NCBI RefSeq assembly: GCF_024502345.1
Contig: NZ_JALDNN010000001.1
Direction: 5' to 3' (one strand)
Length of the DNA stretch: 64,000 bases
Origin: Escherichia coli
GTDB taxonomy: Bacteria > Pseudomonadota > Gammaproteobacteria > Enterobacterales > Enterobacteriaceae
The notes beneath the pieces were generated by a model. The model had not been told where the DNA came from. It ran no database searches and was given only the letters and a program-made list of their open reading frames with translations. Below are positions 1,473 through 64,000 of this stretch, one piece after another (within the stretch, counting starts at the first letter, position 1; each line of letters begins with the position of its first letter). The position numbers and the translations under genes were made by a program.

Positions 1473-3121
1473 TTGGGACGATACTGAATCAGCACCAGAC
1501 GCTCCTGACGATCGATGGCATCTGCGGGCGGAATGGCGAGACTGTTGATATCTTCATCGCGGTCAACCGAAAGCACGAGTGTAATAATCCCCTCCTGACG
1601 ATGTTGATTAAGCCAGTTTGCGAACTCATCATCGCTGACAAATCTCCCTTTCGCATCCGGATAATTAAGGCCGTATTTCAACTCACCTGTCTGGCGATAC
1701 ATGATGATGTCATCGCGTTGCAGGCTCCATGCCAGACCTGCGGCAACACCGACGCTATCAGTAAGAATATAGCGGCTTGGCTGAAGTGATTCTTGTGTCA
1801 TCTCGACAAAAAATTGCGGATGTTTTCCTTCCATGACTCTGTCAGGAATTGAAAATCCTACCAGCAACGCCAGCCCCAGCGGGCAAAGCGCGGCAAAAGA
1901 CCAGGTCTTTTCGACGTTTGTTAAGGTGTACCAGCCGAAAAATGCCCATAGCGAAAAAATCGACCAGGCACAAAAGACTTTATAGCTCTCGAAGGTTTGC
2001 CACACCGGCGTGTTCATTGGTCCCCAGGGGGAGACCACAAATGTGGCAATAATGCCAGTGACGCCAAAAGCGATGTTAATCCAGCCATTAATCCGCAGCG
2101 CCAGAGGATTATTTTTTGCTGCCAGCAAAGCGTAATGTGCCAACAGCATTGCCAGAGGTGCAAAGCAAGAAAGAATATAGGTGGGCAATTTGCCTTTAGC
2201 GACGGAGAAAAACAGCAGCGGCATTATCGTCCAGCTCAACAAATAGACGGTTGCGGAATGCTTGCGGTTTTTCCAGCCTGTGTACAGTGCACCGGGGAGT
2301 AATCCCAGCCACGGCAGGCTACCGGCAATGATGACCGGCACGTAGTACCAGAACGGGGCTCTGTGTTGGGCATCATCCAGTGCAAAGCGTTGAATATGCT
2401 CAACCCAGAAAAAATAGTGCCAGAAGTCAGGCTCCCGCTGCGCTATCGCCAGTCCCCAGGGGAGAACCGTCAGTACGCAACTGATAACCGCCAGCCAGCC
2501 GTAAATAAAGAGATCTTTCCAGCGTTTTTGCGTCGCTACCCATGGCAGCACGCTTAATACCGGCACGGCAAGGGCGAGAAAACCTTTGGTCATCACCCCC
2601 ATGCCGCAGGTGATTCCCAGCAGTAAAAATCCTGCGCTTTTGCCTTTCCACGTCTGTGCCTGCATTGCCAGCCAGAAGCTGCACATTCCCGCCACCAGCC
2701 AGAAGGCAATAAACGGATCGAGCACGGCATAAGTGCCGATGGCATAGACAATAAACAATGAGAGGTAAATCACTGTGGCGAGTAGAGCCAGACGTTTATC
2801 GCGCCATAAGCGCAGAGTAAACCAGGTCACCAGCGCGGCAGTTAACAGGGTCACAAAGATAACGCCTGCCCGCACACCAAAGTTATTCGCGCCAAATAGC
2901 CATTGCCCAATGCTGTTAATCCAGTATCCGGCAATGGGTTTTTCGAAATAACGTAGCCCTAACAGATGGGGCACAATCCAGTCGCCGGATGCCAGCATTT
3001 CTCGACTGATTTCCGCATAACGCGTTTCATCGGGTTGCCATAGCAGACGCGTGCTGATCGGTAACAGGTAATAGCAGGCAATAAACGCGAAGAGGCCGAT
3101 AAGGTAACGTACCGATTTCAT
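1469..3121 (-). CDS. arnT: undecaprenyl-phosphate 4-amino-4-deoxy-L-arabinose:lipid A arabinosyltransferase ArnT (550 aa)
   Basis: ORF 550 aa, polytopic membrane glycosyltransferase ([42 protein letters not shown]...); operon context. Confidence 0.95.
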
Positions 3122-4011
3122 CAGCGACTACCCGCAATTTGTTGGCAACCCAGCCAGCCTTCACGTCCGGCAATATTTCCGCGAACAACTTGTCCGAGCG
3201 GCAACGTCTCTGATAACAGTTCGCTTAAAGGGCAAAATGTCACGCCTTCCTGAGCTGCGCGTTTGAGGAGATCCACAAAATTATGCTGATAAGCGCAGCC
3301 TTCAACTTCTGCATGAATGGTATAAACCGGCGTGCCTTTATCTCGCAGGATGCGGTTGAGTAACCAACCATTAAAATCTTCTGCTTTCACATCCCGACCA
3401 ATCACTTCGTCCCAGGTGGGTAATGTCACCGGAATTTGCGCAGTGCCAGGGTTTCCTGATTCGAGCAGTGGACGGAACGGCATGGCCCCACGGCAATCGC
3501 TGTTGTAGCGCAAATGGAACGCTTCTTTTGCTTCGATCACCTGCTGGTCGGCACGCCAGCCCGCAGCGGCAGAACAGGTTACCGGTTGACCGATAATCTC
3601 TTCCAGGGTGCGAAGGCCGCGTGCAATATCGTCGATCATTGTTTGCCGATCCCAGTTACCGCTATGGGCTTGCCAGGCATGGTGATCCCAGGCGTGCAGG
3701 CCGACTTCGTGATGTTTAGCCGCTTCACGAATGATATCGGCATTGGCATGACCAATCTCTTTACCTGGCCAGGCCGTACCTGCCAGTAAAATATCCCAGC
3801 CATAAAGCGATGCCGCGTTTGAGCGCAGCATCTTCCACAAAAACTGTGGCTTCACCAGTCGCCAGAGATGGCGGCCCATATTGTCCGGGCCGACGCTGAA
3901 AAAAATGCTGGCCTGAATATTATGCTTACTCAAGATTTCCAGCAGACGCGGCACGCCTTCACGGGTGCCACGAAAGGTATCGACATCAATGCGTAAGCCT
4001 ACTTTGGTCAT
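3121..4011 (-). CDS. arnD: 4-deoxy-4-formamido-L-arabinose-phosphoundecaprenol deformylase ArnD (296 aa)
   Basis: ORF 296 aa, polysaccharide deacetylase-like sequence; start overlaps the arnA stop. Confidence 0.95.
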
Positions 4012-23102: not shown

Positions 23103-24182
23103 ATGAAATTGACGCTGAAAAACCTTAGCATGGCGATCATGATGAGCACTATAGTCATGGGAAGCAGTGCACTGGCGGCGGACAGCAACGAAAAAATAGT
23201 CATCGCCCATCGCGGTGCCAGTGGATATTTGCCGGAGCATACGCTGCCAGCAAAAGCGATGGCGTATGCGCAGGGAGCGGATTATCTGGAACAGGATTTG
23301 GTGATGACCAAAGACGACCATCTGGTTGTTCTGCATGACCATTACCTCGATCGTGTTACTGATGTTGCCGATCGTTTCCCGGATCGGGCGCGCAAAGACG
23401 GTCGTTACTACGCGATAGATTTCACGCTGGATGAAATTAAGTCGTTGAAATTTACCGAAGGTTTCGATATTGAAAACGGTAAAAAAGTGCAGACTTATCC
23501 GGGGCGTTTCCCAATGGGTAAGTCCGACTTCCGGGTGCACACCTTTGAAGAAGAGATTGAATTTGTTCAGGGGTTAAATCACTCTACCGGGAAAAATATC
23601 GGTATCTATCCAGAAATCAAAGCGCCGTGGTTCCATCATCAGGAAGGGAAGGATATTGCGGCAAAAACGCTGGAAGTGCTGAAGAAATATGGTTACACCG
23701 GTAAAGACGATAAAGTTTATTTGCAATGTTTTGATGCTGATGAGCTGAAGCGTATTAAGAATGAGCTGGAACCCAAAATGGGCATGGATCTCAATCTGGT
23801 ACAGCTGATTGCCTATACCGACTGGAATGAAACGCAGCAGAAACAGCCGGACGGAAGCTGGGTTAATTACAACTACGACTGGATGTTTAAGCCGGGTGCC
23901 ATGAAACAGGTGGCGGAATATGCAGATGGTATTGGTCCGGATTACCATATGTTGATTGAGGAGACATCGCAGCCGGGTAATATCAAACTCACTGGCATGG
24001 TGCAAGATGCTCAGCAGAACAAGCTGGTAGTGCATCCTTATACCGTGCGGTCAGATAAACTGCCTGAATACACAACTGATGTGAATCAGTTATATGATGC
24101 TCTGTATAACAAAGCGGGTGTAAATGGGTTGTTTACTGATTTCCCTGATAAAGCGGTTAAATTCCTGCATAAAGATAATTAA
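23103..24182 (+). CDS. glpQ: periplasmic glycerophosphodiester phosphodiesterase GlpQ (about 358 aa)
   Basis: ATG 23103 with GGAGG upstream; signal peptide MKLTLKNLSMAIMMSTIVMGSSALA; catalytic motif HRGASGYLPEHT. Confidence 0.95.
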   Translation: MKLTLKNLSMAIMMSTIVMGSSALAADSNEKIVIAHRGASGYLPEHTLPAKAMAYAQGADYLEQDLVMTKDDHLVVLHDHYLDRVTDVADRFPDRARKDGRYYAIDFTLDEIKSLKFTEGFDIENGKKVQTYPGRFPMGKSDFRVHTFEEEIEFVQGLNHSTGKNIGIYPEIKAPWFHHQEGKDIAAKTLEVLKKYGYTGKDDKVYLQCFDADELKRIKNELEPKMGMDLNLVQLIAYTDWNETQQKQPDGSWVNYNYDWMFKPGAMKQVAEYADGIGPDYHMLIEETSQPGNIKLTGMVQDAQQNKLVVHPYTVRSDKLPEYTTDVNQLYDALYNKAGVNGLFTDFPDKAVKFLHKDN

Positions 24183-24189
24183 TGACACA

Positions 24190-24228
24190 GGCATCCGGGA
24201 AGGCAAAACCTGACCGGATGCCCTTTTC
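24190..24228. terminator. hairpin GGCATCCGG-N15-CCGGATGCC followed by CTTTT, between convergent glpQ and the LysR gene
   Basis: 9-bp perfect inverted repeat directly after the glpQ stop; T-run on the + strand. Confidence 0.5.
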
Positions 24229-25105
24229 ACAATATGCCTTTGACCACCAGGGTTTCCATACACATTTGCAATAAAAACAATGGGCTGCCTTCTACCGGCG
24301 CCTCTTTGACCAGCAATGAAATTTGCCGATAAAACGTCGGCTCCAGCGGGACAGAGCATAACTCACCGGCGACGGCTTTCAGCGTCAGCTCCGGTAACAG
24401 AGCAATTCCTAATCCCTGGCGAATAAAACTTATTGCCGTATCTGGATGGTTAAATTCATATTTAATGACCGGCGTAATATTCTTTTCCTTAAATAACGCC
24501 ATAATGCTTAATTCATAACGCCCCTTACTGATAATGAGCGGTTCTCCCACCAGTTCTTCCACCGATATAGCGTTATTTTTTGCCAGGGGATGAGCATCTG
24601 GCAGCACCACGGTAAATTTATCCTGATATACCGGGACGGAATACATTCCGGTTACCGGAAAATGGACAAAACCGGCATCGATAGTTTCGTTTTGCACCGA
24701 ATCAATAATTTCACTGCTGTTCTCTTCGTAAGGAATGATTTTTATCTGCGGATGATAAGTTTCAAAATAGCGAATAATACCCGGTAAAATACACGCGCAG
24801 GCGCTGGGAAAGCAGCCGATGCGCAGCGTTCTGGTCGGGTTATGTTTTTCCTGCTCGGCAATTTCTTTCACAGCGTTCACTTCACGGGTAATCGCCCGCA
24901 GATGGCTTGCGATGCGTGAGCCGGCGTCAGTCAGCTGCAGTGCTTTTCGCCGCTCGCGGATCAGGATCTCTACGCCAAGCTCTTGCTCCAGGGTGGCAAT
25001 GGCCTGGCTTACGGCGGATTGCGTCATAAACAGGCGCTTACTGGCTTCGGTAAAGCCGCCATAATCCAGTACGGCGAGCAGGGTGTGGATTTGGGTTAGT
25101 GTCAT
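24227..25105 (-). CDS. LysR-family transcriptional regulator (292 aa)
   Basis: N-terminal LysR HTH (MTLTQIHTLLAVLDYGGFTEASKRLFMTQSAVSQAIATLEQELG) plus substrate-binding domain; divergent from an MFS gene. Probably the intact counterpart of the K-12 yfaH remnant (inference). Confidence 0.85.
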   Translation of the reverse strand: MTLTQIHTLLAVLDYGGFTEASKRLFMTQSAVSQAIATLEQELGVEILIRERRKALQLTDAGSRIASHLRAITREVNAVKEIAEQEKHNPTRTLRIGCFPSACACILPGIIRYFETYHPQIKIIPYEENSSEIIDSVQNETIDAGFVHFPVTGMYSVPVYQDKFTVVLPDAHPLAKNNAISVEELVGEPLIISKGRYELSIMALFKEKNITPVIKYEFNHPDTAISFIRQGLGIALLPELTLKAVAGELCSVPLEPTFYRQISLLVKEAPVEGSPLFLLQMCMETLVVKGIL

Positions 25106-25148
25106 TAGTAATATCTAATTAATATGATTAAAACGATTAATTTCTCTT

Positions 25149-25174
25149 ATAGAGTGCATCCATTTATACTCTAT
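25149..25174. promoter_or_regulatory. LysR-type T-N11-A operator candidate: inverted repeat ATAGAGT-N12-ACTCTAT
   Basis: Perfect 7-bp inverted repeat in the 164-bp divergent intergenic region between the LysR gene and the MFS gene. Confidence 0.55.
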
Positions 25175-25269
25175 TTCTATCGAGTAAATCACATTTTGAC
25201 GCACCTGTAGTGGTTCAGCCTGTGATGCTGAGCGGTGTCCTTGTGCGCCATTTGAACGGGTCGTTTAGT

Positions 25270-26460
25270 ATGAAAGAAAAATTATGGACGAAAGATTTTT
25301 GGGCAATCACCATTATTAGCTTTATTATCTTTTTCGTCTTTTATGTGTTGCTGACCTTATTACCTATTTATATCTCCGATCGTCTCCATGCATCCCCTGA
25401 TAAAGCTGGTCTGCTGGTGACATTATTTTTAATTGCGGCGATTGTTATTCGACCCTTTGCCGGGCAATGGGTGGGTAAATATTCGAATAAAACTATTCTG
25501 GTGCTCTCTTCTCTGGCCTTTTTGGTGGTCACTGCGCTGTATCCTTTTTGCCACTCAATAGAATCACTGCTTTTTATTAGGGTGCTTCATGGTATTACCT
25601 TCGGGGTTATCACAACGGTAAAGGGAACGATTTCCGCGCGGCTGATCCCGGCTTCCCGACGTGGGGAGGGCATCAGTTTTTTCTCTTTGGCAATGGGGCT
25701 GGCAATGGTGGTCGGGCCGTGGATTGGCCTGAATATGGCGCGCTGGGAGGCCTTTAATATGGCTTTCTGGTTATGTACTGGCGTTGCGGCGGTGGGGATT
25801 ATCCTGTCGCTGATTATGACCGTGCCGCCGGTTATCAGCCATGCCGATGGTTCAAAGCCAAAGATGGGCTTCGCCGCCATGTTCGATCGCGCGGCATTGC
25901 CGTTTGCCATGGTTACATTCTTTATGACCTTTTCGTATGCCGGGGTTTCTGCCTTTCTGGCGCTTTACGCCCGCGAACTTAATCTGATGTCGGCGGCCAG
26001 TAATTTCCTGCTCTGCTACGCCATCTTCCTGATGATCTGCCGTACCTTCACCGGCAATGTTTGCGACAAAAAAGGCCCGAAATATGTGGTTTACCCCTGC
26101 CTGCTGTTCTTTACGGTTGGGCTGGTGGTTCTCGGCTACACCCAGGGCAGCGTAATGATGGTCGTTTCTGGCGCGTTGATTGGTATCGGGTATGGTTCCG
26201 TGACGCCAGTTTTTCAGACGCAGATTATCAGTTCAGTGGAACCGCATAAAATCGGTGTCGCAAACTCCCTCTTCTTCAATGCGATGGATGCAGGCCTGGC
26301 GCTGGGAGCCTGTGTGATGGGGATGATGGTTGCACATACTGGCTACCGAATGATTTATCTGCTGGGCGCACTATTAGTGGTAGTGGCTGGTGGAGTCTAT
26401 GCGCTGCAAATGAAGGGTAAAAGCGGTGTCGCGCTAGTAGTGGCAAAAGAAATTCATTAA
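25270..26460 (+). CDS. MFS transporter (396 aa), divergently paired with the LysR regulator
   Basis: ATG 25270 (MKEKLWTKDFWAITIISFIIFFVFYVLLTLLPIYI...); multi-TM hydrophobic profile of a major-facilitator transporter; six-frame ORF begins 20 codons upstream. Confidence 0.8.
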   Translation: MKEKLWTKDFWAITIISFIIFFVFYVLLTLLPIYISDRLHASPDKAGLLVTLFLIAAIVIRPFAGQWVGKYSNKTILVLSSLAFLVVTALYPFCHSIESLLFIRVLHGITFGVITTVKGTISARLIPASRRGEGISFFSLAMGLAMVVGPWIGLNMARWEAFNMAFWLCTGVAAVGIILSLIMTVPPVISHADGSKPKMGFAAMFDRAALPFAMVTFFMTFSYAGVSAFLALYARELNLMSAASNFLLCYAIFLMICRTFTGNVCDKKGPKYVVYPCLLFFTVGLVVLGYTQGSVMMVVSGALIGIGYGSVTPVFQTQIISSVEPHKIGVANSLFFNAMDAGLALGACVMGMMVAHTGYRMIYLLGALLVVVAGGVYALQMKGKSGVALVVAKEIH

Positions 26461-26540
26461 TACGACACGTTTCATTAAGATTTTTCGCAGGTAACCACCT
26501 ATAGTCATTGTCGTTAATAAAAAATGACAGGCGATAGGGT

Positions 26541-27191
26541 ATGGCAGTTTCAGCAAAGCACGACGAATTTAATCACTGGTGGGCAACAGAGGGCGACTGG
26601 GTTGAAGAGCCTAACTATCGCCGTAATGGTATGAGCGGGGTGCAATGCGTCGAGCGCAACGGCAAAAAGCTATATGTAAAGCGCATGACGCATCATCTGT
26701 TTCATTCCGTACGTTATCCTTTCGGCCGACCAACGATTGTCCGTGAGGTTGCGGTAATTAAAGAACTGGAACGGGCCGGTGTCATCGTGCCGAAGATCGT
26801 TTTTGGTGAAGCGATGAAAATTGAGGGGGAATGGCGCGCGTTGCTGGTGACTGAAGATATGGCGGGGTTCATCAGCATTGCTGACTGGTATGCCCAGCAT
26901 GCAGTAACGCCCTATTCTGACGAAGTACGGCAAGCCATGTTGAAAGCAGTGGCGCTGGCGTTTAAGAAAATGCATAGCGTTAATCGTCAGCATGGCTGTT
27001 GTTATGTTCGCCATATCTATGTGAAAACAGAAGGTAAGGCAGAAGCTGGTTTTCTTGATCTGGAGAAAAGTCGTCGCCGCTTGCGTCGCGATAAAGCGAT
27101 TAATCATGACTTCCGCCAGCTGGAAAAATATCTGGAGCCGATCCCCAAAGCGGACTGGGAGCAGGTAAAAGCGTATTACTACGCCATGTAA
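26541..27191 (+). CDS. inaA: InaA, acid-inducible Kdo/WaaP-family kinase-like protein (216 aa)
   Basis: ORF 216 aa with lipopolysaccharide-kinase-like sequence; position between glpQ and yfaE. Confidence 0.88.
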   Translation: MAVSAKHDEFNHWWATEGDWVEEPNYRRNGMSGVQCVERNGKKLYVKRMTHHLFHSVRYPFGRPTIVREVAVIKELERAGVIVPKIVFGEAMKIEGEWRALLVTEDMAGFISIADWYAQHAVTPYSDEVRQAMLKAVALAFKKMHSVNRQHGCCYVRHIYVKTEGKAEAGFLDLEKSRRRLRRDKAINHDFRQLEKYLEPIPKADWEQVKAYYYAM

Positions 27192-48571: not shown

Positions 48572-48845
48572 TCCATCCCTTCACACAACCTGGCTCTTTC
48601 TTTTTTCAGATAAGACTGCTGGGCGATCTGCCGACGCCAGGATATAACCATTAACAAGCGTCGGCAGATTGGTCATTTCTTATTTTTCGTACTGAGAACT
48701 GTCCATTTACTCCGGCTTTCCTGGTTAAGGCAATGGTTTCTAAGCGATACGCATTATTGCAATGGTGACAGAACATTGCGGTAACACGCTTTTACCGCTA
48801 CCTTAACCACACTCCATCGGTCACCTGAGGCGGAGCTTCGCCCCT

Positions 48846-51695
48846 TTGAAATACCTTGCTTCTTTTCGTACAACCCTGAAAGCCTCGCGCTACATGTTCA
48901 GAGCATTGGCGTTAGTGCTCTGGCTGTTGATTGCTTTTTCATCCGTTTTTTACATCGTTAATGCGTTACATCAGCGAGAATCGGAAATTCGTCAGGAATT
49001 TAATCTGAGTTCCGATCAGGCTCAGCGCTTTATTCAACGCACCTCTGATGTGATGAAAGAGCTGAAGTACATCGCCGAAAATCGCTTATCGGCAGAAAAC
49101 GGTGTGCTTTCCCCGCGTGGACGAGAAACGCAGGCGGATGTGCCTGCGTTTGAACCGCTGTTTGCCGACTCCGATTGTTCAGCAATGAGTAACACCTGGC
49201 GAGGTTCTCTGGAGTCATTGGCGTGGTTTATGCGCTACTGGCGCGATAATTTTTCTGCGGCTTACGATCTCAATCGGGTATTTTTAATCGGCAGCGATAA
49301 CCTCTGCATGGCCAATTTCGGTCTGCGTGATATGCCAGTGGAACGCGATACCGCGTTGAAAGCGTTGCATGAACGCATCAATAAATATCGAAATGCACCA
49401 CAAGATGATAGCGGCAGTAACCTCTACTGGATCAGCGAAGGTCCGCGCCCTGGCGTCGGGTATTTTTACGCGTTGACGCCAGTTTATCTGGCGAACCGGT
49501 TGCAGGCGCTTTTGGGTGTCGAGCAGACCATCCGGATGGAGAATTTTTTCTTACCTGGTACGTTGCCGATGGGGGTTACCATTCTTGATGAAAATGGTCA
49601 TACCCTGATTTCGCTTACCGGACCAGAAAGCAAAATTAAGGGCGATCCTCGCTGGATGCAGGAACGCTCCTGGTTTGGCTATACGGAAGGGTTCCGGGAG
49701 CTGGTGCTGAAGAAAAATCTGCCACCCTCATCGCTAAGCATCGTTTATTCGGTGCCGGTTGATAAGGTGCTGGAACGCATTCGCATGTTGATCCTTAACG
49801 CAATTTTGCTGAATGTGCTTGCCGGAGCTGCATTGTTTACTCTCGCGCGGATGTACGAGCGGCGTATTTTCATTCCGGCGGAAAGCGACGCCCTGCGACT
49901 GGAAGAACATGAGCAGTTCAATCGCAAGATTGTCGCCTCCGCGCCAGTGGGTATCTGCATTTTGCGTACCGCTGATGGCGTCAATATTTTAAGTAACGAA
50001 CTGGCGCATACCTATCTCAATATGCTTACGCATGAGGACCGCCAACGACTGACGCAAATTATCTGTGGGCAGCAGGTCAATTTTGTTGATGTCCTGACCA
50101 GCAACAATACCAATCTGCAAATCAGCTTCGTCCATTCGCGCTATCGTAATGAAAACGTGGCCATTTGTGTGCTGGTGGATGTTTCTTCGCGCGTGAAGAT
50201 GGAAGAGTCGTTGCAGGAGATGGCACAAGCAGCGGAACAGGCGAGCCAGTCAAAATCGATGTTCCTTGCCACCGTCAGTCATGAGCTGCGAACGCCGCTG
50301 TATGGCATTATCGGTAACCTGGATCTGTTGCAAACCAAAGAGTTACCGAAAGGCGTCGATCGTCTGGTGACGGCAATGAACAACTCTTCCAGCCTGTTGT
50401 TGAAAATTATCAGCGATATTCTCGATTTCTCGAAGATTGAATCAGAACAGTTGAAGATCGAACCGCGTGAGTTTTCACCGCGTGAAGTGATGAACCACAT
50501 CACCGCCAACTATTTACCGCTGGTGGTACGCAAGCAGTTAGGCTTGTACTGCTTTATTGAACCGGATGTGCCAGTGGCTTTAAATGGCGACCCGATGCGT
50601 TTACAGCAGGTCATCTCCAACCTGTTGAGTAACGCCATAAAATTCACCGATACCGGCTGTATAGTTTTGCATGTTCGCGCTGATGGCGATTATCTCTCTA
50701 TCCGTGTTCGCGATACCGGCGTGGGGATACCGGCGAAAGAAGTGGTGCGCTTGTTTGATCCCTTCTTCCAGGTCGGAACGGGCGTACAGCGAAACTTCCA
50801 GGGGACCGGTCTGGGTCTGGCGATTTGTGAAAAACTGATCAGCATGATGGACGGCGACATCTCGGTAGATTCAGAACCGGGAATGGGCAGCCAGTTTACC
50901 GTGCGTATTCCGTTGTACGGCGCTCAGTACCCGCAGAAAAAAGGCGTGGAAGGGTTGAGTGGTAAACGCTGCTGGCTGGCGGTCCGCAATGCGTCGCTCT
51001 GTCAGTTCCTGGAAACCAGTTTGCAGCGCAGCGGCATCGTCGTAACAACATACGAAGGGCAGGAACCGACTCCCGAAGATGTGTTAATTACTGACGAGGT
51101 AGTGAGTAAAAAATGGCAGGGTAGAGCGGTAGTGACCTTCTGTCGTCGCCATATTGGTATTCCGCTGGAGAAAGCGCCAGGGGAGTGGGTACACAGTGTG
51201 GCTGCTCCGCATGAGCTACCGGCATTGTTGGCGCGTATTTATTTGATCGAGATGGAGAGCGACGATCCTGCTAACGCTCTGCCGTCGACGGACAAAGCGG
51301 TCAGCGATAATGACGATATGATGATTCTGGTCGTGGATGATCATCCGATTAACCGACGTCTGCTGGCAGATCAGTTGGGATCGTTGGGCTATCAATGTAA
51401 AACCGCGAATGATGGCGTCGATGCGCTTAATGTACTTAGCAAGAATCATATTGATATCGTGCTTAGCGACGTCAACATGCCAAATATGGATGGTTACCGC
51501 TTGACGCAACGCATTCGTCAGTTGGGACTGACGTTGCCGGTAATCGGAGTAACTGCTAATGCGTTGGCTGAAGAGAAGCAGCGGTGTCTGGAGTCCGGTA
51601 TGGACAGCTGCCTGTCGAAGCCGGTAACGCTGGATGTGATAAAACAGACGCTGACGGTATATGCCGAGAGGGTCAGGAAATCGCGGGAATCGTAG
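48846..51695 (+). CDS. rcsC: hybrid sensor histidine kinase RcsC (949 aa, TTG start)
   Basis: HisKA H-box SHELRTPLYGI, HATPase domain and C-terminal receiver (LVVDDHPINRRL...DVNMPNMDG). Confidence 0.96.
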   Translation: MKYLASFRTTLKASRYMFRALALVLWLLIAFSSVFYIVNALHQRESEIRQEFNLSSDQAQRFIQRTSDVMKELKYIAENRLSAENGVLSPRGRETQADVPAFEPLFADSDCSAMSNTWRGSLESLAWFMRYWRDNFSAAYDLNRVFLIGSDNLCMANFGLRDMPVERDTALKALHERINKYRNAPQDDSGSNLYWISEGPRPGVGYFYALTPVYLANRLQALLGVEQTIRMENFFLPGTLPMGVTILDENGHTLISLTGPESKIKGDPRWMQERSWFGYTEGFRELVLKKNLPPSSLSIVYSVPVDKVLERIRMLILNAILLNVLAGAALFTLARMYERRIFIPAESDALRLEEHEQFNRKIVASAPVGICILRTADGVNILSNELAHTYLNMLTHEDRQRLTQIICGQQVNFVDVLTSNNTNLQISFVHSRYRNENVAICVLVDVSSRVKMEESLQEMAQAAEQASQSKSMFLATVSHELRTPLYGIIGNLDLLQTKELPKGVDRLVTAMNNSSSLLLKIISDILDFSKIESEQLKIEPREFSPREVMNHITANYLPLVVRKQLGLYCFIEPDVPVALNGDPMRLQQVISNLLSNAIKFTDTGCIVLHVRADGDYLSIRVRDTGVGIPAKEVVRLFDPFFQVGTGVQRNFQGTGLGLAICEKLISMMDGDISVDSEPGMGSQFTVRIPLYGAQYPQKKGVEGLSGKRCWLAVRNASLCQFLETSLQRSGIVVTTYEGQEPTPEDVLITDEVVSKKWQGRAVVTFCRRHIGIPLEKAPGEWVHSVAAPHELPALLARIYLIEMESDDPANALPSTDKAVSDNDDMMILVVDDHPINRRLLADQLGSLGYQCKTANDGVDALNVLSKNHIDIVLSDVNMPNMDGYRLTQRIRQLGLTLPVIGVTANALAEEKQRCLESGMDSCLSKPVTLDVIKQTLTVYAERVRKSRES

Positions 51696-51893
51696 GACGG
51701 ATAAGGTGTTTATGCCGCATCCGGCATTCAGTGCAAATGCCAGATGCGACGCTGACGCGTCTTATCTGGCCTACTTTAATGTAATCTGTTGAAATAATGG
51801 GAATCGTAGGACGGATAAGGCGTTTACGCCGCATCCGGCAATCGGTGCAAATGCCAGATAAGACACTAACGCGTCTTATCTGGCCTACAGATG
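51685..51893. repeat. REP/BIME array between convergent rcsC and rcsB, organised as a 114-bp tandem duplication that includes the last 11 bp of rcsC
   Basis: GGGAATCGTAGGACGGATAAGG...GCCGCATCCGGCA...GCGTCTTATCTGGCCTAC occurs twice, starting at 51685 and 51799. Confidence 0.8.
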
Positions 51894-55545: not shown

Positions 55546-55638
55546 AAAAAAAACCGGATGCGAGGCATCCGGTTGAAATAGGGGTAAACAGACATTCAGA
55601 AATGAATGACGGTAATAAATAAAGTTAATGATGATAGC
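55546..55638 (-). ncRNA. micF: MicF small regulatory RNA (antisense regulator of ompF mRNA), including its intrinsic terminator
   Basis: Minus-strand sequence GCTATCATCATTAACTTTATTTATTACCGTCATTCATTTCTGAATGTCTGTTTACCCCTATTTCAACCGGATGCCTCGCATCCGGTTTTTTTT matches MicF as I recall it; divergent from ompC. Confidence 0.9.
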
Positions 55639-55793
55639 GGGAGATATTCTAGTTGCGAGTGAAGGTTTTGTTTTGACATTCAGTGCTGTCAAATACTTAA
55701 GAATAAGTTATTGATTTTAACCTTGAATTATTATTGCTTGATGTTAGGTGCTTATTTCGCCATTCCGTAATAATCTTAAAAAGTTCCCTTGCA

Positions 55794-63660: not shown

Positions 63661-63665
63661 GTATG

Positions 63666-64000
63666 CTGATAAGACGCGCCAGCGTCGCATCAGGCAACCG
63701 GCTCGGGCGTTAGATGTCGGATGCGGCGTGACCGCCTTATCCGACCTACGGGGTGGAGCACTTCACAGCGGTGTAGGCCTGATAAGACGCGTCAGCGTCG
63801 CATCAGGCAACCGGCTCGGACGTTGGATGTCGGATGCGGCGTAACCGCCTTATCCGACCTACGGGGTGGAGCACTTCACAGCGGTGTAGGCCTGATAAGA
63901 CGCGTCAGCGTCGCATCAGGCAACCGGCTCGGACGTTGGATGTCGGATGCGGCGTAACCGACTTATTCGACCTACGGGGTGGAGCACTTCACAGCGGCGT
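63666..64000. repeat. BIME-type REP array: at least three tandem copies of a 113-bp unit, continuing beyond the window end
   Basis: Unit starts at 63666, 63779 and 63892; each contains REP palindromes (CTGATAAGACGCG(C/T)CAGCGTCGCATCAGGC, GGATGCGGCGT(A/G)ACCGCCTTATCCGACCTAC); explains the duplicated small ORFs in the six-frame track. Confidence 0.85.

Follow-up and report, generated by a model that had tools for sequence, protein, structure and literature searches.

The window analysed here is a stretch of 64,000 nucleotides of Escherichia coli DNA. Between glpQ and inaA it carries two divergently transcribed genes, one for a LysR-type regulator and one for an MFS transporter, separated by a short spacer. 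An earlier note on this DNA had named the two neighbours, the two reading frames and the spacer length, and the ORFs and the RefSeq annotation bear out all of them. The features at gene level are as follows.

24165-25422: divergent, possibly recombinant segment (last glpQ codons and terminator, LysR gene, control region, first ~51 MFS codons)
24190-24222, plus strand: terminator hairpin of glpQ, followed by CTTTTC and abutting the LysR stop codon (dG -24.5 kcal/mol, z -5.95)
24227-25105, minus strand: LysR-type transcriptional regulator, 292 aa, ATG start, intact, a rare divergent allele (ORF and Pfam)
24467-26353: stretch absent from K-12 (LysR codons 1 to ~213, control region, MFS codons 1 to ~361)
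25106-25269: divergent control region, 164 bp, 37% GC
25270-26460, plus strand: MFS transporter, 396 aa, ATG start, intact, DHA1-like (ORF and Pfam MFS_1)

Both reading frames are intact, although inactivating mutations in that of the transporter had been raised as a possible objection, and both lengths equal those of the orthologues at 24 other loci. A longer GTG-initiated frame from 25210 exists for the transporter; all orthologues start with MKEKLWTK at the ATG at 25270, RefSeq likewise gives 396 aa, and the protein is 100% identical to WP_000660231.1. K-12 has a terminator hairpin of different sequence at the corresponding position behind glpQ. A scan of 24100-26600 against Rfam at permissive threshold gave no match, so that this region holds no known leader or riboswitch. 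As the earlier note had supposed, no function is assigned to the pair: the RefSeq names are just "LysR family transcriptional regulator" and "MFS transporter", and no NCBIfam equivalog cut-off is passed. Searching the literature with yfaH, with presumed locus tags (possibly wrong) and with the WP accessions, we found no paper or experiment on the LysR/MFS pair.

E. coli K-12 had been said to possess only a fragment here, and this is the case. Between inaA and glpQ strain MG1655 holds only the pseudogene yfaH (207 nt), and no pair annotated with a function. The observation at gene level is confirmed. The K-12 junction lies in the 8-bp direct repeat TTTATCTG, which is found at both ends in the common allele. 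The pseudogene yfaH arose by a deletion of ~1.9 kb between these repeats, which took away the control region together with 90% of the MFS gene and most of the LysR gene. In the literature found, yfaH serves as a neutral marker site or is listed among other genes as "putative uncharacterized protein" (PMC2714960, PMC9600279).

The presence/absence comparison suggested earlier could be carried out on 5426 complete E. coli genomes. The full pair is present in 1211 of them (22%), ~3160 contain only a 187-bp remnant and 1057 show no trace, i.e. the full pair was lost in 78%. Furthermore, the LysR gene is frameshifted in the genome closest to the window. This frequent loss together with the frameshift indicates that the pair is dispensable in many niches. 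Both observations, and the simple origin of the K-12 deletion between 8-bp repeats, would also suit a decaying relic that is functionless in E. coli now and heading to the K-12 state. The conservation of the pair speaks against such a relic. Gene lengths are constant across ~10 genera, omega is ~0.05 for both genes, even between two E. coli alleles, and the MFS protein is identical across alleles despite 26 differing sites in the first 51 codons. We consider decay quite improbable for these reasons.

The divergent pair (292 and 396 aa) was found at 24 orthologous loci outside the window allele, usually in the same glp-nrd neighbourhood. These loci include those of cryptic Escherichia, Salmonella arizonae and diarizonae, Citrobacter, Kluyvera, Klebsiella, Superficieibacter, Phytobacter, Pluralibacter and Leminorella, and several of the pairs still adjoin glpQ, glpA, nrdB or inaA. 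Judged by this distribution, the pair is ancestral in Enterobacteriaceae and not a strain peculiarity. Distant homologues are again divergently adjacent in Desulfosporosinus and Neobacillus. Comparing the LysR gene of the window with the common E. coli allele yielded a dN of 0.105, a dS of 2.1 and an omega of 0.05, and for the MFS gene omega was 0.05-0.07 against Salmonella or Citrobacter. The pair is under strong purifying selection (omega ~0.05). In K-12 we see the derived condition of a module that selection conserves and maintains across Enterobacteriaceae, including O157:H7 and Salmonella.

The regulator shows the characteristics of the LTTR family. An N-terminal winged helix-turn-helix (Pfam HTH_1, PF00126, residues 3-62, E 6.2e-19) is followed by a C-terminal effector domain of periplasmic-binding-protein type (LysR_substrate, PF03466, residues 89-268, E 1.1e-35), the length is near the ~300 aa usual for the family, and T-N11-A dyads (ATTAA-N5-TTAAT and ATTA-N7-TAAT) are conserved upstream in 25 loci. 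None of the 25 listed NCBIfam matches reaches the cut-off of a characterised LTTR equivalog; the best ones are GltC (126.6 bits, cut-off 350), AlsR (123, cut-off 430), CidR (122, cut-off 415) and CynR (111, cut-off 277). Residues 226-290 align with positions 2-66 of NF007272, the 68-aa YfaH model, with 134.9 bits. This is just under the cut-off of 139, because the window carries the divergent LysR allele. The positional orthology of yfaH and the LysR gene of the window follows from synteny.

The rare divergent allele is the sole unusual feature of a pair that is otherwise ordinary in kind and gives no sign of a new system. In a 100-nt identity profile the common E. coli allele matches the segment 24165-25422 at 77-78% and its flanks at 99-100%. 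The two LysR proteins share 84% of their amino acids and the 3' end of glpQ diverges, too. As many as 26 of the 30 mismatches in the MFS gene fall between 25278 and 25422, and the MFS proteins are identical. The window allele was detected at an identity of at least 99% in 108 of the 5426 genomes; for the glpA-glpQ flank the identity amounts to 96.5-100% in 5409 genomes. With ~2, dS of the segment against the common E. coli allele is as large as against Salmonella or Citrobacter. No donor was found among 39 genome loci or in a search of 5.8 billion proteins. The nearest LysR protein outside its own 90%-identity cluster showed 84% identity in that search and 87% in the species-representative genomes scanned. 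The regulator, the control region and the 5' end of the MFS gene may have been replaced by, or may have been retained as, a very old allele of an unsampled lineage. We tentatively suggest that this 1.26-kb segment was imported from another lineage, or else is a balanced polymorphism of great age, and that it swapped regulator and control region and left the transporter protein unchanged, an explanation that is possible but rather doubtful. If the alleles differ in inducer or expression level, we would be looking at a regulatory allele that was naturally replaced within one species while serving a single efflux or transport function. If this is true, the conserved 18 nt at 25187-25204 could act as a further, so far undescribed site of control. 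The divergent regulator allele next to an identical transporter is a natural experiment on the inducer specificity of regulator alleles.

Within and around the control region the following elements were distinguished.

25116-25150: conserved ATTA-rich block, probable LysR operator (column conservation of at least 90% in 25 loci of ~10 genera)
25149-25174: inverted repeat ATAGAGT-N12-ACTCTAT, present, overlapping the predicted -10 hexamer, probably fortuitous
25165-25170, plus strand: predicted -10 hexamer TATACT of the MFS promoter (conserved offset across spacers)
25187-25204: second conserved element AATCACA-N3-T-N-ACGCAC (kept across genera amid unalignable sequence)

In the earlier note the repeat at 25149-25174 was described as perfect and of T-N11-A type. 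It is indeed perfect; its inner T and A are 12 nt apart, not 11, and that it is a meaningful feature could not be confirmed. At least one perfect repeat with 7-nt arms and a spacer of 3-20 nt occurred in 14.5% of 5000 dinucleotide-preserving shuffles of the spacer. The right arm is conserved in 0 of the 24 orthologous spacers, common E. coli allele included, and the half-sites lie 19 bp apart compared to 13-15 bp in canonical LysR dyads. Since it is unconserved, compatible with chance and too widely spaced, this repeat probably does not serve as the operator of LysR.

Alternatively it might be that the repeat is the LysR recognition site nevertheless, or at least the activation site of the window allele. 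It has perfect 7-nt arms in the right region and shares its 7-N12-7 geometry with the conserved inverted repeat AATTAAT-N12-ATTAATT at 25117-25142. The centres of the two lie 32 bp from each other, a distance similar to that between the recognition and activation sites of LTTRs, and two such repeats appeared in only 4% of the shuffles. However, none of the 24 orthologous spacers has the right arm in this form, even though the regulators have most of their helix-turn-helix in common, and a single repeat of this kind arises by chance at the rate given above. The DNA-binding dimer of LTTRs spans about one helical turn, compared to the 19 bp between the half-site centres. Moreover, the overlap with the predicted -10 hexamer fits repression, not activation. 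We therefore give such a role of the repeat little chance.

Phylogenetic footprinting points to another element, 10-35 bp to the left of this repeat, and corrects the earlier operator guess. The consensus of the ATTA-rich block in 25 loci is CTAATTAA-N4-ATTAAAACGATTAATTT-N2-CTAAT. Canonical LTTR boxes are T-N11-A dyads of 13-15 bp, and three overlapping dyads of this type occur in the block, namely TTAAT-N3-ATTAA (25119-25131), ATTAA-N5-TTAAT (25127-25141) and ATTA-N7-TAAT (25136-25150), the last one having the right arm TTAT in the window allele. The edge of the block is 11 nt from the LysR start codon, and the distance of its anchor to the LysR ATG is 21 nt, invariant in all 25 loci. The 17-mer ATTAAAACGATTAATTT was found exactly and in one copy in each of 16 of 16 fetched loci. 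Within the 64-kb window it is unique, with 0 copies expected by chance. From this conservation we conclude that the ATTA-rich block at 25116-25150 is probably the LysR operator. The spacers of the distant homologues in Neobacillus and Desulfosporosinus, inspected for a shared operator, carry other AT-rich repeats and are uninformative in this respect.

The right end of the block overlaps a predicted weak -35 sequence of the MFS promoter (TTCTCT, 25142-25147), and transcription of the MFS gene would start near 25177. A TAnnnT hexamer (TATACT, TATAAT, TATCAT, TATGAT, TAGAAT or TAAAAT) follows the conserved TAAT after 14 nt, at the same offset, in 21 of the 25 spacers. The exceptions are TACACT in two Citrobacter loci and GATACT, shifted by 2 nt, in Pluralibacter. 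A consensus promoter scan of the spacer called neither of the divergent promoters and identified no LysR promoter. The only call adjacent to the spacer in the promoter/terminator scan (25099-25128, plus strand) is not conserved, and the total number of calls was not above the shuffle expectation. Relative to a start at 25177, the candidate operator would have its centres at about -58, -43 and -34, nearer than the textbook recognition site at -65.

The second conserved element would correspond to +11 to +28 of the MFS transcript. It might be that this element is the true site of control, or that a second regulator binds there. By-eye comparison of AATCACA...TGACGCAC with the consensus sequences of CRP, FNR, PurR and MarA/SoxS/Rob gave no fit. 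The element also pairs imperfectly with sequence to its right, giving a hairpin at 25188-25226 of which it is the left arm. We rejected this hairpin as a conserved leader structure because a deletion has removed its right arm from the common E. coli allele.

Some LTTRs act globally or on remote genes, and the element at 25187-25204 could belong to another regulator. On these grounds the LysR protein might mainly control genes elsewhere, with the neighbouring MFS gene being expressed independently. Yet the divergent adjacency of both genes is kept in every genus, also with other flanking genes, and recurs in the distant homologues of Desulfosporosinus and Neobacillus. The box is found at fixed spacing to a -10-like hexamer facing the MFS gene, and the window contains no second copy of it. 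We regard independent expression of the MFS gene as very improbable. Instead, the LysR protein would bind the ATTA-rich block, overlap the -35 of the promoter with the -10 hexamer TATACT, and in this way be expected to repress its own transcription; together with a small-molecule co-inducer it would be expected to activate the divergent MFS gene. The position of the box, with its anchor 21 nt from the LysR ATG and its overlap with the presumptive -35, would be consistent with co-inducer activation and negative autoregulation.

The transporter matches Pfam MFS_1 (PF07690) over residues 14-346 (model positions 2-346 of 347, E 2.4e-46), which corresponds to a full-length MFS protein of two six-helix halves, and its second-half repeat matches the same model again at residues 213-375. 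A Kyte-Doolittle count of 12 helices was dropped since this crude count is too noisy. A homology search for the subfamily, as proposed earlier, was successful in part: the nearest named relatives are exporters, but no NCBIfam equivalog or subfamily cut-off was reached and a substrate class can thus not be transferred. The best NCBIfam matches, all below cut-off, are PRK05122 (111.9 bits, cut-off 374), PRK12382 ("arabinose transporter", 85.4, cut-off 364) and the staphylopine exporter CntE (75.3, cut-off 235), and TIGR00880 ("multidrug resistance protein") is among the best matches, too. In the PDB the best matches are NorA (E 6e-14) and a chain that was deposited under the name "Sugar efflux transporter". 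DHA1 antiporters are characterised by motif C (G-x3-G-P-x2-G-G) in TM5 and by a motif A situated in a cytoplasmic loop. In the MFS protein the core of motif C, VVGPWIG, aligns with ILGPGIG of NorA in TM5. A motif A-like sequence, G-N-V-C-D-K-K-G-P-K, is present in the second-half loop only, and the first-half loop GQWVGKYSNK has no D-R.

Homology to the MFS by itself leaves the direction of transport unfixed. Many MFS_1 proteins are symporters, and weak matches to aromatic acid/H+ symporters and sugar-acid transporters in NCBIfam and to an L-lactate transporter in the PDB would suit a nutrient importer that is induced by LysR in response to that nutrient. The top-scoring relatives, however, are all exporters and TM5 contains the core of antiporter motif C. 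Nor did any genus examined show a catabolic enzyme gene in linkage with the pair. Import is in our opinion unlikely. Gene neighbours were also considered as a guide to the substrate and revealed no consistent partner: glp and nrd genes surround the pair in Enterobacteriaceae, and in Desulfosporosinus and Bacillus sp. EB600 the neighbours are unrelated, coding for an anaerobic sulfatase maturase, for a YghX-like hydrolase and for a two-component system. Most probably the MFS protein exports a small metabolite or a toxic compound by proton coupling; it is DHA1-like and related to NorA, YhhS, YfcJ and CntE.

On balance, we lean towards the view that the pair is an LTTR with its target, vertically inherited at the glp-nrd locus of Enterobacteriaceae and deleted in most E. 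coli, and that the target is a LysR-activated exporter of a small molecule. The present analysis provides a concrete and testable candidate operator and promoter for this orphan regulator/transporter pair. Its practical value lies in annotation and in the choice of strains for studying the pair.

Among known systems, yfaH (b2238) of K-12 occupies the same locus and corresponds to the C-terminal ~68-80 codons of the LysR gene. As a deletion remnant of the common allele it shows 92.7% nucleotide identity to the O157-type gene but 76.5% to the gene of the window. YhhS/YfcJ (PRK05122, PRK12382) and CntE are of the same size class as the MFS protein and align with its residues 10-380, i.e. with the whole length; with scores far under the cut-offs it is nevertheless not a member of any of these families. 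Their reported substrates, arabinose or glyphosate efflux and metallophore export, are not transferable to the window protein. The closest solved structure by sequence is NorA, the DHA1 multidrug efflux pump of Staphylococcus aureus (PDB 7LO7, 8TTF). The N-terminal six-helix half aligns with it, and so does, within this half, the motif C core G-P-x-I-G of TM5, whereas the C-terminal half reaches only E ~5, and there is no sign of drug efflux for the MFS protein.

The regulator resembles LTTRs with a divergent target (BenM/benA, CynR/cynTSX, AlsR/alsSD, CidR/cidABC) in its domains HTH_1 and LysR_substrate, its size of ~292 aa, the short spacer and T-N11-A dyads upstream of and overlapping the target -35. 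The putative operator beside the regulator's own start is likewise shared, as would be expected for autorepression. It differs from them in that no model of a characterised LTTR is matched at cut-off, the best-scoring GltC being of Gram-positive type, and in that ATTAA repeats arrayed with a period of 9 bp make up its putative operator, instead of a single dyad at -65.

The earlier note had described an intact LysR-type regulator gene with a divergent MFS transporter gene between glpQ and inaA, and this was borne out: the window contains two intact opposite-strand ORFs separated by a 164-bp spacer.

24182: end of glpQ
24190-24222: strong glpQ terminator hairpin (dG -24.5 kcal/mol, z -5.95)
24227-25105, minus strand: LysR-type regulator ORF, 292 aa, ATG start, intact
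25106-25269: intergenic spacer, 164 bp, 37% GC
25270-26460, plus strand: MFS transporter ORF, 396 aa, intact
26541: start of inaA

The regulator contains the Pfam domains HTH_1 and LysR_substrate, and the transporter matches MFS_1 over its full length. A longer form of the MFS ORF with a GTG start at 25210 was also listed. RefSeq gives 396 aa with the start at 25270, MKEKLWTK is the start in every orthologue, and the common E. coli allele has a deletion of the extra 5' stretch of the GTG-initiated form. The bases directly 5' of the LysR ATG (CTAATG context) are conserved among orthologues. Neither a purine-rich Shine-Dalgarno sequence before this ATG (25106-25120) nor a sigma-70-like promoter for the LysR gene was identified in the window spacer, so that its mRNA possibly has a very short leader or none.

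K-12 MG1655 carries the 207-nt pseudogene yfaH alone between inaA and glpQ and lacks an equivalent of window positions 24467-26353, as the earlier note had stated. The K-12 junction (L001:3474-3935, the K-12 locus) lies inside the 8-bp direct repeat TTTATCTG, which full-length common-allele loci carry at either end of the deleted stretch (at about 4220 and 6088 in L003, the O157-type locus of NZ_CP035545.1), indicating that yfaH arose by simple deletion between short repeats. The left copy of TTTATCTG is missing from the window allele, which therefore could not undergo the same deletion. The K-12 pseudogene derives from the common allele, to which it shows 92.7% identity, and not from the window allele (76.5%). 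Elsewhere in the window, at 48573-48769, this strain lacks the atoSCDAEB operon, which in K-12 is 7.4 kb long and separates yfaP from rcsC; the regions homologous to yfaP and rcsC are about 200 nt apart (megablast against K-12).

The comparative survey suggested in the earlier note found the whole pair in 1211 of 5426 complete E. coli genomes, as well as in further genera of the Enterobacteriaceae. About 3160 of these E. coli genomes retain, like K-12, the last 187 bp only (MFS 3' end and spacer to inaA), and 1057 have no match to the locus. The adjoining glpA-glpQ segment is present in 5409 of the genomes at 96.5-100% identity, showing that the window is ordinary E. coli core chromosome.

The window carries a rare allele of the locus, found at 99% identity or more in only 108 of the 5426 genomes. 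Other full-length E. coli loci (O157:H7, O55:H7, SMS-3-5) are 77-78% identical to the window across 24183-25480 and 99-100% identical from 25483 on. The LysR proteins of the window and the common allele agree at 246 of 292 positions; their MFS proteins are the same, and 26 of the 30 mismatches between the MFS genes fall within 25278-25422. On the left, the divergent segment begins in the last codons of glpQ (24165-24226 region; the product has 359 aa in the window and 358 aa in K-12) and exchanges the glpQ terminator hairpin for one that differs in sequence and is built along similar lines. Between the two LysR alleles dN is 0.105 and dS about 2.1 (saturated; omega 0.05), a dS as large as that to Salmonella (1.3) or Citrobacter (1.7). 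Searched against 5.8 billion proteins, the window-allele LysR fell into one 90%-identity cluster with 266 member sequences; the next best matches were the E. coli common allele (84%) and E. albertii (83%), and the best match in species-representative genomes was Escherichia sp. E1V33 (87%). Neither search revealed a donor, which points to an unsampled donor lineage or a very old polymorphism. In the genome closest to the window (L002, NZ_CP080085.1; 99.9% over the locus) the same rare LysR gene (L002:4045-4922) is annotated by RefSeq as frameshifted. The L003 locus contains an extra 356-aa ORF (2440-3510; WP_001301786.1, 'hypothetical protein', no NCBIfam match) between glpQ and the LysR gene, on an insertion of about 1.7 kb missing from the window and K-12.

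Outside E. coli, the divergent pair with both protein lengths unchanged was found in three cryptic or newly named Escherichia species, Salmonella arizonae and diarizonae, several Citrobacter, Kluyvera, Klebsiella spallanzanii, Pseudocitrobacter, Superficieibacter, Phytobacter, Pluralibacter and Leminorella, and a protein search added members of the Klebsiella oxytoca group and S. enterica. In many of these genera the pair still adjoins glpQ; the Kluyvera pair is flanked by glpA and nrdB. The constant lengths and the glp neighbourhood indicate that the pair is an ancestral feature of the locus rather than an island. Omega of the MFS gene against Salmonella or Citrobacter is 0.05-0.07; such low values are, at the level of sequence comparison, a demonstration that the pair has been kept by selection, and argue against its being a decaying relic. 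Firmicutes have more distant homologues: the MFS proteins of Desulfosporosinus and Bacillus sp. EB600 show 55% identity, and in Neobacillus the LysR shows 38% and the MFS 34%. Where the LysR gene is present, the arrangement is again divergent. Operator comparison with these homologues was uninformative.

An alignment of 25 orthologous spacers revealed three conserved elements in an otherwise poorly conserved region.

25116-25150: ATTA-rich block, candidate LysR operator, CTAATTAA-N4-ATTAAAACGATTAATTT-N2-CTAAT
25165-25170, plus strand: predicted -10 of the MFS promoter, TATACT
25187-25204: 18-nt element conserved across genera, AATCACA-N3-T-N-ACGCAC, downstream of the predicted -10

The ATTA block shows at least 90% column identity, and throughout the alignment its anchor keeps a distance of exactly 21 nt from the LysR ATG. 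It has one copy in the 64 kb of the window, where chance predicts none; its 17-mer ATTAAAACGATTAATTT is found exactly, and once, in 16 of 16 fetched loci. ATTAA occurs three times in the block at 9-bp intervals, and the block also comprises overlapping dyads of 13-15 bp of the T-N11-A type (TTAAT-N3-ATTAA, ATTAA-N5-TTAAT, ATTA-N7-TAAT) and a 7-N12-7 repeat, AATTAAT/ATTAATT. The last TAAT is changed to TTAT in two sequences only, one being the window allele. A TAnnnT hexamer 14 nt past this TAAT is present in 21 of the 25 spacers (elsewhere TATAAT, TATCAT, TATGAT, TAGAAT or TAAAAT; exceptions include TACACT in two Citrobacter loci and GATACT, shifted by 2 nt, in Pluralibacter), as would be expected of a -10 element facing the MFS gene. 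The matching -35 reads TTCTCT in the window and TTTTAC or TTTACT in Kluyvera and Klebsiella; it is weak and shares bases with the block, which would suit an activator-dependent promoter. A consensus promoter scan called neither of the two divergent promoters in the spacer. The 18-nt element had no Rfam match and agreed with none of the consensus sequences of CRP, FNR, PurR and Mar/Sox/Rob. Elsewhere in the window Rfam detected MicF (55546-55639, minus strand, 116.8 bits) and two clusters of naRNA4/REP-derived elements (51695-51885, plus; 63664-63972, minus), all above gathering thresholds; the 64 kb contain no tRNA genes.

The earlier note had proposed a different operator, the repeat ATAGAGT-N12-ACTCTAT. 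It exists exactly at 25149-25174, between the ATTA block and the 18-nt element and overlapping the predicted -10, but we regard it as probably fortuitous. Its left arm is partly retained in other loci, while the right arm differs in every one of them, the common E. coli allele included, and 14.5% of 5000 dinucleotide shuffles of the spacer contained at least one such perfect repeat (4.3% at least two). Furthermore, the centres of its half-sites are at a distance of 19 bp; LTTR DNA-binding dimers bind in two neighbouring major grooves, for instance at T-N11-A dyads or at the ATAC-N7-GTAT of BenM. Because its centre lies 32 bp from that of the conserved 7-N12-7 repeat, a slim chance is left that it serves as a second regulator site in the window allele.

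With a modest lean in its favour, we propose a joint model in which the LysR protein would bind the ATTA block and repress its own gene, whose start codon lies 11 nt from the block edge. Together with a co-inducer it would activate the weak MFS promoter (predicted transcription start near 25177), and the MFS protein would export the co-inducer or a relative of it by proton antiport. A much less likely alternative is that the regulator acts mainly on genes elsewhere; against this, the window has no second copy of the block.

Already known are the generic RefSeq annotation and the presence of the pair in familiar strains, e.g. O157:H7. The analysis adds an account of how yfaH originated, a predicted operator and promoter that correct the earlier proposal and can be tested, the maintenance of the module by selection, and a rare regulator allele with synonymous divergence of inter-genus level fused to an unchanged transporter.

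Both proteins bear generic names in all sources, literature searches gave nothing on the function of the pair, and neither protein reached an NCBIfam equivalog or subfamily cut-off. The homology check suggested for the transporter hence gave no subfamily, but its nearest families are exporter-like: PRK05122, PRK12382 ('arabinose transporter'), TIGR00880 ('multidrug resistance protein') and the staphylopine exporter CntE. Among solved structures, those nearest in sequence are the NorA efflux pump (E 6e-14, N-terminal half) and a chain with the deposited name 'Sugar efflux transporter'; VVGPWIG of the transporter aligns with ILGPGIG of NorA, the core of antiporter motif C. A hydropathy helix count was too crude to be usable. 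No catabolic genes accompany the pair in the genera whose neighbourhoods were examined, and these neighbourhoods yielded no substrate. Exporter-like relatives, the motif C core and the lack of catabolic neighbours favour, without proving, an exporter over an importer. The regulator best matches Gram-positive-type GltC, AlsR and CidR, followed by CynR, each with a score near one third of its cut-off, and its residues 226-290 score 134.9 bits against the 68-aa YfaH model (cut-off 139). The pair belongs to the commonest type of regulator/transporter module in bacteria, of which it is an unstudied example.
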